Of a stretch of 64,000 nucleotides of DNA, positions 14,218 through 20,624 are shown piece by piece. Source of the DNA: Gammaproteobacteria bacterium (GTDB taxonomy: Bacteria > Pseudomonadota > Gammaproteobacteria > UBA12402); contig JAHJDF010000002.1 in the NCBI GenBank assembly GCA_018812595.1, positions 1,790 to 65,789 of the forward strand, written 5' to 3'. Position 1 is the stretch's first letter. Each line of letters begins with the position of its first letter. A program made the position numbers and the translations under genes. The notes beneath the pieces were generated by a model. That model had not been told where the DNA came from. It did no database searches and worked only from the letters and a program-made list of their open reading frames with translations.

Positions 14218-14841
14218 AACGTAGAGACGCGATTTATCGCGTCTCTATGTTTGGAAATATAGATCTTTTTTCCAATTCAATGGGTTATAGGTGATGTATT
14301 CAAGTACCTGTAGATATTCTTTTTCATCACGAATGACATGTTCGTAAAAACGAGGTTGCCATGAAAAATGGAAATTTCTTTTTCTAATTGCATAAGTGGT
14401 ACGCGCTTTATACCAACGAATAATGTGCGATAAATTTCCGTGTAGCATTGGATTATATTTTTGAGTAATTCCTCCTTTTTTACTTGCTGAAGCATTGTTC
14501 AAGAAATTTGAGCAGTACTTGTTAATAGTAATTACGCCATGTAGGTGATTAGGCATAAGAATCCAGGGATCCAGTTGTACAAATTGAAAATACTTGGGCA
14601 CTTGTCGCCAATGATCATTTGCTAATTGTCCGATTAAAGATAATTCCACTTCATTATCCAAAATGCGGCCAAACAAACATTTTCTATCTTTGATGCACAA
14701 GGTTACGAAATAAGCGCCTGGCTCGCCGTAGTCATAACCTTTGCTGCGTGTAGATGAAATACGGTATTTATTTCTGAATTTTTTCATTTCGAATCGATGG
14801 TATTTTTAATAAACGTAGAGACGCGATTTATCGCGTCTCTG
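14218..14841 (-). mobile_element. REP/RAYT unit: HuH Y1 transposase gene flanked by inverted family-A palindromes
   Basis: AACGTAGAGACGCGATTTATCGCGTCTCTATG at 14218-14249 and AACGTAGAGACGCGATTTATCGCGTCTCTGTG at 14810-14841 bracket the transposase ORF. Confidence 0.8.
14245..14787 (-). CDS. REP-associated tyrosine transposase (RAYT; IS200/IS605 TnpA Y1 family)
   Basis: 180 aa; HuH motif LMPNHLHGVI, conserved C-terminal Tyr region (RWYKARTTYAIRK); flanked by its cognate REP palindromes. Confidence 0.8.
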   Translation of the reverse strand: MKKFRNKYRISSTRSKGYDYGEPGAYFVTLCIKDRKCLFGRILDNEVELSLIGQLANDHWRQVPKYFQFVQLDPWILMPNHLHGVITINKYCSNFLNNASASKKGGITQKYNPMLHGNLSHIIRWYKARTTYAIRKRNFHFSWQPRFYEHVIRDEKEYLQVLEYITYNPLNWKKDLYFQT

Positions 14842-14852
14842 TGAAGCGGGGG

Positions 14853-15872
14853 TTACAAATACGTCGAATCGTTGGAGGTTTTTTTTAGGTTGTTTAAGAC
14901 TGTTTGGATGCTGGATTGGGTGAAGAGGGAAAGGCGATCTAAGGGGCTTTTTTTCTTTTTGTATTTGATTTCGTAGATGTCGTGTTGTTTAGCAGCATTT
15001 AATAAATAAGCGTCGCTCGTAATCAATTCGTCGACCATGTTTAATTCTTTTGCTTTTTTTGCAAACCAATATTCGCCGGTGGCGATGGCATCGATTTCTA
15101 CTTGCGGTCTATGTTGTTTTACGAATGATTTAAATAACTCATGCGCTTCGTTGATCTCTTCTTGAAATTTTTTGCGACCGTCTCGCGTGTTTTCCCCAAA
15201 CAAGGACAACGTGCGTTTGTATTCGCCGGCAGTGATTTGTTCGAATTCGATGTCGTTCTTTTTCAATACGCGATGGAAGTTGGGCAATTGTGCTAAAACG
15301 CCTATAGAGCCAATAATGGCAAACGGTGCAGCTAACAGTCGATCTGCAACACATGCCATCATGTAACCGCCGCTTGCGGCGATTTTGTCGACGGCGATGG
15401 TTAATGGAATGGCATTGTTTTTAATACGCTGTAGTTGGGAGGCGGCTAATCCGTATCCGTGCACAACGCCGCCGGAGCTTTCGAGACGCAACACAATTTC
15501 ATCGGTTGTTTTAGCAACCATCAAAATGGCAGAGATTTCTTCTCTTAACGTGTCGACGTTTTTTGCTTTTAAGTCCCCATCAAAATTTATGACAAAAATT
15601 CTTTTTTTCGAGACAGGCATTTGATCTTTGTTTTTCAACGCTTGTTTTTTTTCTTTCGCTAATTTTTTTCGTTCCTTTTTCGAAAGAATTTCCTCTTGAA
15701 TGGCTTCTGCCATCTTTTCATAAAATTGATTGATCTTTCGTATCGATAATTGTGGTTTTGATTTTGTTTTACTAAGCAGGGCAACGATGCCGGCAGTGAT
15801 GATCAAAATCGCAACGACAACGATAAATGTTTGTAGAAAAAATATCGCTAAATGAAGAAGTGCGTCGAGCAT
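14853..15872 (-). CDS. sohB: S49-family periplasmic serine peptidase (SohB / short SppA type)
   Basis: N-terminal TM then S49 core (IAASGGYMMACVADRLLAAPFAIIGSIGV); 339 aa. Confidence 0.7.
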   Translation of the reverse strand: MLDALLHLAIFFLQTFIVVVAILIITAGIVALLSKTKSKPQLSIRKINQFYEKMAEAIQEEILSKKERKKLAKEKKQALKNKDQMPVSKKRIFVINFDGDLKAKNVDTLREEISAILMVAKTTDEIVLRLESSGGVVHGYGLAASQLQRIKNNAIPLTIAVDKIAASGGYMMACVADRLLAAPFAIIGSIGVLAQLPNFHRVLKKNDIEFEQITAGEYKRTLSLFGENTRDGRKKFQEEINEAHELFKSFVKQHRPQVEIDAIATGEYWFAKKAKELNMVDELITSDAYLLNAAKQHDIYEIKYKKKKSPLDRLSLFTQSSIQTVLNNLKKTSNDSTYL

Positions 15873-15894
15873 GATATCTATCCTTTATCGGTGG

Positions 15895-17937
15895 TTATGA
15901 GCGTTTTCGAGGCCTAATTAAAATGATTCTGTGATCAGATTTTATTTTTGGTAAGTCCTTTGTTGTCACAATTCGTACTTGCCAAGAATAGTCCGTGAGC
16001 GATGGGAACAAAGTATTAGCCGCAAATTCAATTTCTACCGGACGAACATACGAGTGGAATACAAAAAGATGCTTGTGTGGAATGTCGTAATACACAGTGC
16101 CCACCCAGAGCGGTTGATGTTTGCATACAGAGACAATATGGCTATTCCATAACCGTAAGATGAGTGGAGGAGATTGTTGCTGAACAAATTTAATTAATGT
16201 CAGTGTTGGTTTTTGATCAAGATACAAAGGAGGGAATAGCGATTGATGCTCCAGGGTCTTTTGTTTGGAAATGATTTTGAGCGTAGAGAAATAATCCTCT
16301 GAATTCAGTGTATTCCACCCGTGCAATTTTAAGGTCGTATAAATTGCATTGATGTTTCCAGCCCATTGCACATTCAATAGCTGGATGGGTTTTCCTAATC
16401 GGTTCGTTCGATACAACGGCAAGCAATGAGCGTGTTGATTCCACCAAGTCGTCAAGCTCATTTGTTGTTCCGGCCAAGTACATTGAGAAGCTTTTAGCAT
16501 TTTCTTAAAAGCAAAATGTAAATCGATACTGACTGCAAGCACCATGGTGATGAGCGCAATAAGGAAAAGGGACAAGGGGCGTAGTTCGTCTTTCTGGTAG
16601 CGACGATAAGAAATGATGATCAATGCGGAGCAAAAGAGACCTAGAAAAGTGCCGCCGAGTACATCCGTGAACCAGTGAGCCCCGAGGTACAGTCTCGAGA
16701 TGCCGATCAATGCGCAGATTGCTATGGTGAGCCAAACGATCGGTTTGCGATATGTTTTGGGAAGGTTGATGCAAATGAAATATGCCAAAAGACTGTAGAT
16801 GCCTACGGACAAAGTGGTGTGTCCGCTTGGAAAGGATGAGGATAAGGCTTGTTTGACGATCCCTATCGGCCGCGGGTTGTAATACAACGATTTAAAGACT
16901 TTGACGGCTACAAACAATAAACCACAGCCAAAAAACCAATGCAGAGCGGTGTTCCAATGTTTACGAATGAGTAACCACAGCGTGATGACAAAGGTGAGGA
17001 TCAAAAGGAATTTGCCGTAACCAAAAAGGGTTGCCGTAATCATGATGCGGTCAAGCGTCTGTGTGCGCAGTCCTCTAAAGAGATGATAAATCGCATGATT
17101 CCAAGCTAATAAAGGCCCGTGAAAAATTACATTGAGATACAGAACGGCGAATAACAATGAGGCGATGAGGAAATTGATGGCCAGTAGCAATTGTCCCCGT
17201 TGATGTTCTCTTCCTGCATGTTTCAAAAGCACACAAAACCAGTGCTTTGACGGTTGCTTTGACCAGGTTTGCCATTCTCTATCGAGCAAGTTTGAAAAGT
17301 AGCTATGCGTTTTGTCGTATAGATAGTTAATCGTTTTTGCTACTGCCCAAATGATGATGAGAAGTGTGAGAACGAAGAAAATTAATTCAGCCGCAACATC
17401 TGCGGGCATTTCAAGAGAGATCGCGCCCAATAAAAAACCCGGCAACATGTAAAGCGGTGCCCATAAAATAGCGGACGGAATGCTGGCCAAAAAATAGAGA
17501 CGAGGGCGCATGTTTAACATGCCAGCGATGATGGGAATCATGGCTCGTACCGGACCCACAAAACGACCGATAAAAACACTTAACGTGCCGTGTTTTTCAA
17601 AGAATTTTTCACCTTTGATCAAAATGTTTGGATATTTTTTAAAGAGCCATTTCTTTTGGAGATTTCCTTTAAAAACATATCCCAATAGATAACTGCAACT
17701 GTCGCCCGCGATGGCTCCTAGAATTGCAAATAAGAGCACGACCCAGACTGGAATGATTCCAGCGCCAGCAAGAATTCCAATGGCCATCATTGTGATAGAG
17801 CCAGGGATAAATGTTCCGATAAAGGCAATAGATTCAGCGAAAGCGATGAGAAATGCTGCAACGCCGCCCCAATGTGGGTGAAGGTGTAACCAATTGGTAA
17901 ATAAAGCGTAATGAATGAAGTGCATAAGCTCGTCCAA
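15895..17937 (-). CDS. Three-part membrane protein: N-terminal DedA/SNARE-associated domain, central PAP2 phosphatase domain, ~240-aa C-terminal domain of unknown function
   Basis: DedA-like N-terminus (IAFAESIAFIGTFIPGSITMM...FIGRFVGPVRAMIPIIAGM); PAP2 motifs KSLYYNPRP (KX6RP), PSGH, SRLYLGAHWFTD (SRX5HX3D). Confidence 0.75.
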   Translation of the reverse strand: MDELMHFIHYALFTNWLHLHPHWGGVAAFLIAFAESIAFIGTFIPGSITMMAIGILAGAGIIPVWVVLLFAILGAIAGDSCSYLLGYVFKGNLQKKWLFKKYPNILIKGEKFFEKHGTLSVFIGRFVGPVRAMIPIIAGMLNMRPRLYFLASIPSAILWAPLYMLPGFLLGAISLEMPADVAAELIFFVLTLLIIIWAVAKTINYLYDKTHSYFSNLLDREWQTWSKQPSKHWFCVLLKHAGREHQRGQLLLAINFLIASLLFAVLYLNVIFHGPLLAWNHAIYHLFRGLRTQTLDRIMITATLFGYGKFLLILTFVITLWLLIRKHWNTALHWFFGCGLLFVAVKVFKSLYYNPRPIGIVKQALSSSFPSGHTTLSVGIYSLLAYFICINLPKTYRKPIVWLTIAICALIGISRLYLGAHWFTDVLGGTFLGLFCSALIIISYRRYQKDELRPLSLFLIALITMVLAVSIDLHFAFKKMLKASQCTWPEQQMSLTTWWNQHAHCLPLYRTNRLGKPIQLLNVQWAGNINAIYTTLKLHGWNTLNSEDYFSTLKIISKQKTLEHQSLFPPLYLDQKPTLTLIKFVQQQSPPLILRLWNSHIVSVCKHQPLWVGTVYYDIPHKHLFVFHSYVRPVEIEFAANTLFPSLTDYSWQVRIVTTKDLPKIKSDHRIILIRPRKRS

Positions 17938-17967
17938 GCAGGTTAAAAGCGTGCGATTTTATAGTGT

Positions 17968-18234
17968 TCACAAAACCATGACTACTTGTTTACATTGAGT
18001 GAATGAGGCATAGAGCCTATCGATTTGAGGCTTATTTTTAGCGGTAAAAGTGAAGGTGAAAGAGAGATATTTTTTGCTGGTACTTTTGTTTTTTCGTAAT
18101 TCTATAAATGCACCTTTAGGGCATTTTTTTTCTACGATTTTTTTCACCTCTTCTTCAAAAGCAGGGCTGTTGTGACCGATGATTTTTATCGGGAATTTGC
18201 AAGGAAATGTCAGGGCGCTTTTAGTATTTTTCAT
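17968..18234 (-). CDS. ybeD: YbeD-family (UPF0250/DUF493) small protein
   Basis: FPCKFPIKIIG signature; conserved position next to dacA as in E. coli. Confidence 0.7.
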   Translation of the reverse strand: MKNTKSALTFPCKFPIKIIGHNSPAFEEEVKKIVEKKCPKGAFIELRKNKSTSKKYLSFTFTFTAKNKPQIDRLYASFTQCKQVVMVL

Positions 18235-19085
18235 AGGCTATTTTTATGCGTTTGAAAGAGAGAATGCATTTTTTTCCAAAGGGGACCGGGTTTGCCATTA
18301 GCGATTTTTTGGTCGTTTACAAAACTGATGGGCATCACGTCTCGTGAGGAGCTTGTGATCCAGACTTCATCTGCATTTAGTAATCGAGTTAAGGTCAATT
18401 GTTTTTCTTGAAGCGATAGTTTGTTTTTTTGAGCCAGCTCGATCACAAGGGCGCGTGTTGTGCCGCCTAAGAGCGATGATGAGAGTGGAGGGGTATAAAT
18501 CACATTTGATTTTGCGATAAATACATTGCTGCTGGCGCCTTCAATAATTTTTTTATCGCGAATCAAAAGAACTTCGTTCGCTCCTTCATTTAAAGCTTCT
18601 TGCTGCATCAAAATATTCGGTAACAACGCTGTGGTTTTAATGTGGCAGAGTTTCCAACGAATATCTTCTCGAGTAATGACTTTAAAGCCTTTAGAAAGAT
18701 TTGAGTAATCCGGTTGAATTAATTCTTTTAACATAACAAAGACAGTGGGTTTTAAGTGCGATTTTGGTAATGCGAGTGAACGCGTGGAATCAACACCGCG
18801 AGTCATTTGTAAATACAGGGATTTGTTTTCTGTTTTTATCTGATTGAGTTTGAGCAACTTTGAAAAAATGCGAAGCCATTGTGCTTGCGAAAAAGGTTGT
18901 AACAAACCAATTGCTTGTGCGCTGTGGTTTAAGCGATCTATGTGCTTGTGAGCGAGGAAAGGTTTTCCATTGTAGACGCTGATAACTTCATAAATCCCGT
19001 CAGAAAACAAAAAGCCTCGGTCAAGGACCGAGACTTTTGCTTTTTCAGTCGTTAAGTAATGTCCGTTTAAATAGACGATGTTCAT
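18231..19085 (-). CDS. Class IV (D-amino acid / branched-chain) aminotransferase
   Basis: N-terminus VLDRGFLFSDGIYEVISVYNGKPF and EVWITSSSRDVMPI region typical of fold-type IV PLP enzymes. Confidence 0.8.
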   Translation of the reverse strand: MNIVYLNGHYLTTEKAKVSVLDRGFLFSDGIYEVISVYNGKPFLAHKHIDRLNHSAQAIGLLQPFSQAQWLRIFSKLLKLNQIKTENKSLYLQMTRGVDSTRSLALPKSHLKPTVFVMLKELIQPDYSNLSKGFKVITREDIRWKLCHIKTTALLPNILMQQEALNEGANEVLLIRDKKIIEGASSNVFIAKSNVIYTPPLSSSLLGGTTRALVIELAQKNKLSLQEKQLTLTRLLNADEVWITSSSRDVMPISFVNDQKIANGKPGPLWKKMHSLFQTHKNSL

Positions 19086-20527
19086 GGATTAGCAGAGGTT
19101 CCATTTGCTGGTTTTTGTGCTGGATTTTGCATCGTCTGTTGAACGGATTGCTGTATCGGCTGCTGTTCTGGATTTTGCATCGTCTGTTGAGCCGGTTGCT
19201 GAACAGGTTGCGCTACATTGGTTGGTGTTGCTAGCGTGTTGTTTTCAGCAGGCATTTGAGAGTTTGTATCCATCGATTGTGCTGAAACAGAGCCCGTTTG
19301 CTTTGCCGGCTTGCTTTTAAACCAACTGTGGAAGAAGTGATTGATGTGATCAACTGCGCGATGGAAAATGCCACCTTTTGCATCTTCTTTAAGAGCAACT
19401 AACGGTTGAGATGTGACGGTTTGGTTGTTCAACGTCACTGTCAAAGTTCCAATGTTTTGACCTTTTGTAACGGGTGCTTTTAGGTCTGGGAGCAACGATA
19501 TGTTGACTTGTATGTTTTTAAATTGCCCGTGAGGAATGGTTACATATAAGTCGTTGGTGACTCCTGCAGGGACTGTTTTTTCGCTGCCGAGCCAGACACG
19601 AGCTTTCGTGATAACGCTCGTTGCTTGATAAATTGGATGGGTCTCGAAGAAACGGAACCCGTAGGAAAGTAAAGTGATGCTGTCATTTGCACGGGCTTCA
19701 TCGGTTGGCGCGCCGACAACAACGGAAATGAGGCGCATTCCATCTTTTAGTGCAGAAGAAACTAAGCAGTAACCTGCTTCATCTGTGTGACCTGTTTTGA
19801 GTCCGTCTGCATACGGATAACGCCACAGTAATCGATTGCGATTGGGTTGACGGATGCCGTTATAAGAAAACCATTTTTGTTTGTACCACTCATAATCTTG
19901 TGGATAATTTTTAATGATCGCTTGAGCCAAAACAGCTAAGTCATGTGCAGTGGAATAATGATCTTTGGTTGGTAGACCTGTGCAGTCGGCAAAATGAGAA
20001 TTGTTCATGCCAAGTCGTTGGGCTTCTGCATTCATCATGTTGACGAAAGCGTCTTCTGAACCCGCGATGTACTCTGACATAGCAACGCAAGCATCGTTTC
20101 CGGAATCCACAATAATGCCTTGAACTAAGTCTTTAACAGGGACTGATTTTCCAACGCGAACAAACATTTTTGATCCACCGGTTTGCCATGCTTTTTTACT
20201 AATCAGTACTTTGCTGTCGAGTTGGATAGAGTTTGAAGCGATCGCTTGAGAAACAATGTACATGGTCATCATTTTCGTCAAGCTGGCTGGGGCAATGCGT
20301 TGGTCCATGTTTTTCTGAGCAATAATTTTTCCACTATTTGCATCCATTAGGATATACGCACTTGCATTAATATCAGGGGGCGAAGGAATCAGCATTGCTT
20401 GTTGCGTTGCTGGGGGACTCGATGGAAGAGGGGTTGATGTAGGCGCGGGTTGTTGGGCAAAAGCCAGGCTTGTACAAAACAAGCTGATGAGCAGAAAAGA
20501 CAGGTATTTATAGTATTTTTTAAGCAT
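19082..20527 (-). CDS. dacA: D-alanyl-D-alanine carboxypeptidase (PBP5/6, DacA-like) with C-terminal Q/P-rich tandem-repeat tail
   Basis: Signal peptide from Met at 20527 (MLKKYYKYLSFLLISLFCTSLAFA); SxxK ASLTK, SGN, KTG motifs; C-terminal ~45-bp tandem DNA repeats (19100-19200). Confidence 0.85.
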   Translation of the reverse strand: MLKKYYKYLSFLLISLFCTSLAFAQQPAPTSTPLPSSPPATQQAMLIPSPPDINASAYILMDANSGKIIAQKNMDQRIAPASLTKMMTMYIVSQAIASNSIQLDSKVLISKKAWQTGGSKMFVRVGKSVPVKDLVQGIIVDSGNDACVAMSEYIAGSEDAFVNMMNAEAQRLGMNNSHFADCTGLPTKDHYSTAHDLAVLAQAIIKNYPQDYEWYKQKWFSYNGIRQPNRNRLLWRYPYADGLKTGHTDEAGYCLVSSALKDGMRLISVVVGAPTDEARANDSITLLSYGFRFFETHPIYQATSVITKARVWLGSEKTVPAGVTNDLYVTIPHGQFKNIQVNISLLPDLKAPVTKGQNIGTLTVTLNNQTVTSQPLVALKEDAKGGIFHRAVDHINHFFHSWFKSKPAKQTGSVSAQSMDTNSQMPAENNTLATPTNVAQPVQQPAQQTMQNPEQQPIQQSVQQTMQNPAQKPANGTSANP

Positions 20528-20624
20528 GAGCGTTATTCCTTTGATGCTGATAAAAAAACGGGCGCGATTGTAACAATAAGCAAAGGGGTGGAAAAGATCG
20601 GACTTTGTTGCGACCTTATTAAAA

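Follow-up and report, generated by a model that had tools for sequence, protein, structure and literature searches.

Does the joining of two membrane modules in one gene mean that its product strips a phosphate from a carrier lipid and then returns that lipid across the membrane? An answer to how bacteria bring undecaprenyl phosphate back to the cytoplasmic leaflet came only in 2022–23, with DedA–PAP2 fusions among the arguments, and one such fusion lies in the 64,000-nucleotide stretch of gammaproteobacterial DNA analysed here, hereafter the window. The gene product is a three-domain inner-membrane protein composed of a DedA domain, an intact PAP2 domain and an LssY_C domain, arranged as follows (positions are those of the window).

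15895-17937, minus strand: whole open reading frame, 680 aa from a TTG start; stop codon at 15895-15897
17323-17880, minus strand: DedA/VTT domain, YabI-type within COG0586, residues ~20-205
17545-17565, minus strand: RFVGPVR, with the arginine pair R125/R131, aligning to R130/R136 of YqjA/YghB
17191-17322, minus strand: DedA–PAP2 linker of ~44 residues (206-249), K/R-rich, predicted cytoplasmic
16603-17190, minus strand: PAP2 lipid phosphatase domain, six-helix core, residues ~250-445
16867-16893, minus strand: motif C1, KSLYYNPRP (KX6RP), residues 349-357
16819-16830, minus strand: motif C2, PSGH, residues 370-373
16663-16698, minus strand: motif C3, SRLYLGAHWFTD (SRX5HX3D), residues 414-425
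16489-16578, minus strand: extra helix TM7, residues 454-483, a helix in the AF2 model, predicted to run from cytoplasm to periplasm
15898-16488, minus strand: LssY_C domain, residues 484-680, alpha/beta, Trp-rich, predicted periplasmic

The natural DedA–PAP2 fusion described in the original prediction is real: all three domains exceed their Pfam cut-offs within a single open reading frame, and the arrangement recurs in relatives. The same collinear DedA–PAP2–LssY_C chain is shared by the top 120 homologues, by 99 of 145 representative clusters and by each of the 80 genome loci examined, which excludes a gene-calling or assembly artefact. A public protein (P0001) that is 100% identical has 676 aa and corresponds to the ATG at 17923-17925, which is preceded by a GGACGAG-like ribosome-binding site; together these point to that ATG as the probable true start, the TTG start probably being a 4-residue over-extension. 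The full-length AF2 model is confident (pLDDT 86, pTM 0.81) and suggests that the domains hold a defined arrangement relative to one another. A search of the window for a second copy of DedA, PAP2 or LssY_C found none.

Sought in relatives, the same fusion proves widespread, with the DedA–PAP2–LssY_C architecture in at least 566 species genomes, and the order of the three domains and the linker are kept over Gamma-, Beta- and Alphaproteobacteria and Desulfobacterota. The window protein belongs to the LssX/LssY orthologue group, collinear chains of ~670-700 aa that are homologous throughout and that NCBI PGAP names ‘bifunctional DedA family/phosphatase PAP2 family protein’. The family is thus abundant and already named, the identical sequence is already in NCBI, and the window gene is a further intact case. 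Over the family loci, no universal conserved synteny was found and neighbourhoods vary by lineage; outside Legionellales, the neighbours are unrelated housekeeping genes or two-component systems.

For the N-terminal ~200 residues, the assignment to DedA holds, with a match of Pfam VTT_dom (PF09335) to residues 44-167 at 75.3 bits (cut-off 33.9, E 7.7e-21) and of the NCBIfam DedA model at 63 bits. The UptA equivalogs NF052604 and NF052605 give 32.9 and 31.8 bits, below their cut-offs of 250 and 300, and sequence identity is 32% to E. coli YabI versus 23-27% to YqjA, YohD and DedA. Re-entrant loop 1 has a P45-G46 turn, a G-D79 motif is present, and re-entrant loop 2 bears R125 and R131; the AF2 helices are interrupted at 36-46 and 126-133. 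Residues E35, D79, R125 and R131 are invariant in 53 of 53 family members, as is P45-G46. The YqjA/YghB counterparts of the arginine pair are essential and, according to the literature, are likely the phosphate-binding site for UndP. Of the two membrane-embedded acidic residues of YqjA/YghB, E39 has its counterpart in E35, and the position of D51 is taken by S47; 44 of the 53 members have Ser here and 9 have Thr. We considered this replacement as a fusion-specific loss of proton coupling and rejected it, because E. coli YabI, which reads PGT here, and 120 of the 120 closest DedA-only relatives also have Ser or Thr at the site; it is the mark of a subgroup and no defect.

The PAP2 domain matches Pfam PF01569 over residues 365-445 (63.1 bits, cut-off 27.2, E 2.9e-17). 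Its three motifs are present exactly as first quoted, and their residues are at least 90% conserved over the 53 members: K349 in 50, R356 and P357 in all 53, H373 in 48, H421 in 50 and D425 in all 53. The closest match in the PDB is 5jki, PgpB/YodM of B. subtilis (E 2.8e-17), with which Foldseek gives a TM-score of 0.84 and an r.m.s.d. of 2.1 Å at 30% identity over 192 columns; the LpxE structure gives a TM-score of 0.74 and a PDB match at E 3.7e-4. Among the NCBIfam models, SepP (NF047884, 41.7 bits) ranks above PgpB (NF007975, 28.3), YbjG (NF008813, 26.9) and LpxE (NF007159, 15.4), and the domain reaches none of the equivalog cut-offs, which are 250, 261, 229 and 177, respectively. The clustering with LpxE/F-type phosphatases that had been named as a refuting outcome is not seen, as BsPgpB, SepP, PgpB and YbjG all lie closer than LpxE. 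The ranking, a comparison of sequences, favours the C55-PP/PGP types over LpxE and establishes membership in no curated equivalog. The promiscuity of PAP2 enzymes means that C55-PP, PGP and lipid A substrates cannot be told apart from sequence. A literature search for usable work on SepP found none.

The loops that carry C1/C2 and C3 are poor in K and R over the 53 members and the alternate loops are rich, a pattern that, with the homology to BsPgpB, predicts an outward-facing PAP2 active site; the motifs would face the periplasm, as expected by the original prediction, and cytoplasmic placement is not indicated. By the same positive-inside pattern, LssY_C is predicted to lie outside with the three motifs, and the linker inside. 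The linker holds on average 6.8 K+R versus 2.3 D+E, and in the AF2 model it forms a helix extending from the last DedA transmembrane helix. TM7 has its hydropathy peak at residue 464 and is flanked by a K/R-rich loop (445-456) and, after the helix, by a K/R-poor segment.

Beyond PAP2, the original prediction placed an unassigned soluble domain of 240 aa. The extra domain exists, but it is not unassigned: it consists of TM7 and ~197 aa of the named domain LssY_C (PF14067), matched over residues 506-621 at 42.9 bits (cut-off 25). A profile search with this family yields 1040 representative proteins and places it C-terminally in 150 of the 150 best listed; no solved structural relative of LssY_C was found. 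Candidate PAP2–LssY_C and stand-alone LssY_C architectures were dropped, most being fragments that start mid-domain or within the linker. Among Proteobacteria, the prevailing form of the fusion is a chain with a third domain, which is predicted to be periplasmic.

In the window, the gene sits in a probable operon, with the following features.

14817-20594, minus strand: probable operon, genes overlapping twice by 4 nt and then spaced 30 and 22 nt apart
20594-20567, minus strand: promoter-like site, from a promoter scan
20527-19082, minus strand: dacA, PBP5-type D,D-carboxypeptidase, likely start at 20527, from Pfam
19085-18231, minus strand: class-IV aminotransferase, from Pfam
18234-17968, minus strand: DUF493/ybeD, from Pfam, with the fusion gene next
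15872-14853, minus strand: sohB, S49 peptidase, from Pfam, downstream of the fusion gene
14840-14817, minus strand: terminator-like hairpin, from a terminator scan

The fusion gene, within its operon, lies next to a PMT_2/ArnT-like glycosyltransferase gene, whose family uses polyprenyl-P-sugar donors, and not far from a MurA-sized gene of the EPSP-synthase family. Linkage to dacA occurs in 22 of 80 loci and may reflect the conserved dacA-ybeD-lipB cluster without further meaning.

We tentatively read the chain as a carrier-lipid relay, built from a YabI-type DedA domain, the linker, PAP2, the seventh helix and a periplasmic LssY_C, a reading that we place a little short of an even chance. Starting from the architecture, motifs, fold, loop charges, operon and distribution described above, we infer the substrate, the transport by DedA, any channelling between modules and the part played by LssY_C. 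At the outer leaflet, where its active site would lie, the PAP2 module would hydrolyse a lipid pyrophosphate, most probably undecaprenyl-PP released by peptidoglycan or glycan polymerisation, with PGP also possible, as for BsPgpB. The DedA module would then bring the monophosphate product, C55-P, back to the inner leaflet by way of R125/R131, and LssY_C, over the periplasmic face, would serve in binding or regulation with no catalysis of its own. The tight operon with a PBP5-type carboxypeptidase and a class-IV aminotransferase, the glycosyltransferase and EPSP-synthase-family genes close to it, the recurrent dacA linkage, the conservation of the motifs, the confident AF2 model, the fit of PAP2 to BsPgpB, the arginine pair, the loop charges, the PAP2 ranking and the published arguments from fusion, synteny and COG0586 flippases argue for this relay. 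Against it stand the YabI type of the DedA domain, with no equivalent of Asp51, the missed equivalog cut-offs, a PGP phosphatase as nearest solved relative, the loss of PAP2 residues in Legionellaceae and the unrelated neighbours of the family gene outside Legionellales.

The coupling of C55-PP dephosphorylation to C55-P return that the original prediction proposed is coherent, and its domains are right; the idea was already published in 2022, and the genetics of PA4011 from P. aeruginosa speak against it. Roney & Rudner (2022/2023) and Todor et al. (2023) reason that DedA and PAP2, when fused or adjacent, would act one after the other in the lipid II cycle; dedA–pap2 adjacency where the genes are unfused and the evidence for UndP flippases in COG0586 are also published. 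PA4011 (437 aa, DedA–PAP2), the only DedA–PAP2 fusion with genetic data, left susceptibility to fosmidomycin unchanged and could not stand in for the genuine C55-P flippase PA4029 when that was lost (mBio 2026, PMC12893004).

The strongest competitor, which we consider doubtful but still worth weighing, is remodelling of membrane phospholipids or lipid A, with PAP2 acting as a PGP phosphatase or an LpxE/LpxF/LpxT-like enzyme and DedA as a scramblase or a factor in lipid homeostasis. The eukaryotic relatives of DedA are phospholipid scramblases, which counts in its favour, as do a PAP2-type PGP phosphatase as best solved relative, the second place of the E. coli PgpB model among the NCBIfam PAP2 matches and the fold similarity to LpxE. 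The family gene is flanked by OmpR-type two-component systems at several loci, from Rhizobiales and other groups, and for PA4011, whose loss reduces the emergence of colistin resistance, the authors themselves propose ‘phosphoregulation or membrane lipid remodeling’ (PMC12893004). On the other side, LpxE is the weakest PAP2 match (15 bits, and an E value many orders of magnitude behind that of BsPgpB), the DedA domain is of the COG0586 type with an arginine pair tied to binding of the UndP phosphate, and the operon partners in the window are peptidoglycan enzymes.

A second and unlikely alternative is that DedA and PAP2 work independently and are merely co-expressed, fused for shared membrane insertion or regulation; a fusion with no hand-off of substrate would carry no Rosetta-stone information on function. 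This would fit a whole clade that has lost the PAP2 catalytic residues with the rest of the protein conserved, the failure of PA4011 to act as a part of C55-P recycling, and the fusion of COG0586 DedA domains to unrelated domains such as rhodanese. It sits less well with the conservation of domain order and linker through so many genomes of four lineages, with the proximity of dedA and pap2 even when unfused, and with the pTM of the full-length AF2 model, which suggests that the domains are arranged in a defined way.

The clade in question is Legionellaceae, whose proteins retain DedA and LssY_C and have degenerate PAP2 motifs. In the L. pneumophila orthologue, LssX/LssY (UniRef Q5ZVC8_LEGPH, ‘DedA/PAP2 domain protein’, 678 aa), PSGH has become PSVS and SR..H..D has become AN..F..D. 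Because the catalytic residues are gone and the other two domains are kept, the role of the family there needs no phosphatase activity. Downstream lssZ is found in 12 of 80 loci, all 12 within this clade; the window protein falls outside it, in a sister group with intact motifs, and a search of the window for an lssZ homologue found none, so that the gene lies outside an lssXYZABD locus. A natural split into LssX (268 aa) and LssY (394 aa) in L. pneumophila was rejected as the general state, as most genomes encode one 678-aa chain; the gene is split in a few assemblies, in which the first frame stops soon after a T-homopolymer run.

One history that we regard as quite improbable would join these observations: the PAP2 enzyme lost its activity in an ancestor of Legionellaceae, and the scaffold of DedA and LssY_C was taken into the RtxA type I secretion locus, the intact proteins being self-contained machines for carrier-lipid recycling in which LssY_C gates or captures the lipid pyrophosphate or docks on a glycan or peptidoglycan polymerase. 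If true, it would imply phosphatase-independent lipid handling by DedA and LssY_C, and lssXYZABD would begin with a pseudo-enzyme that had gone unnoticed. A type I secretion accessory that works with LssZ/LssA/LssB/LssD in the export of RtxA-type adhesins, a role suggested by the name LssX/LssY, is the least probable reading of the window protein, very unlikely even though the L. pneumophila orthologue lies directly upstream of the NCBI-named ‘type I secretion system protein LssZ’ and then an ABC transporter, given that the lssZ linkage is limited to the clade with dead PAP2, that sohB follows the gene in the window, and that a literature search for functional studies of LssX/LssY found none.

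Returning to the carrier-lipid relay, the dead PAP2 of Legionellaceae and the negative genetics of PA4011 call for caution: a fusion is no proof that dephosphorylation is followed by flipping. An intact member such as the window protein is a reasonable candidate for biochemical testing.

Among known systems, the fusion and synteny argument made for UptA of B. subtilis and S. aureus is the same inference as the relay considered here; the published discussions of DedA–PAP2 fusion and synteny that were consulted make no mention of LssY_C or of the Legionella pseudo-phosphatase clade. For the DedA domain, the nearest E. coli paralogue is YabI, which likewise has PG[ST] instead of PGD, a GD motif and the two arginines within GRFVGPxR, but is a stand-alone protein of 254 aa; in the B. 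subtilis MX2401 assay, YabI gave weak resistance or UndP transport, far below that of E. coli DedA. For the PAP2 domain, B. subtilis PgpB/YodM has the same six-helix core with the three motifs aligned, and differs in being a stand-alone protein of ~200 aa, without DedA or LssY_C, that is primarily a PGP phosphatase. PA4011, compared by description, has an N-terminal DedA and a C-terminal PAP2 as in the window protein and lacks TM7 and LssY_C; because LssY_C is absent, it is an indirect test of the window protein.

The closest likeness in layout is to the Legionellales relatives, which share the upstream dacA, dat and ybeD genes with the window. The homologue in Aquicella lusitana (P0071) is 39% identical to the window protein. 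LssX/LssY of L. pneumophila has the same DedA–linker–PAP2–TM7–LssY_C layout and length, with 45% identity over the DedA part and 27% over the rear PAP2 and LssY_C part. Downstream, sohB in the window contrasts with lssZ-lssA-lssB-lssD in Legionella, and whereas the Legionella/Tatlockia clade is without the PAP2 catalytic residues, the window protein keeps them all.

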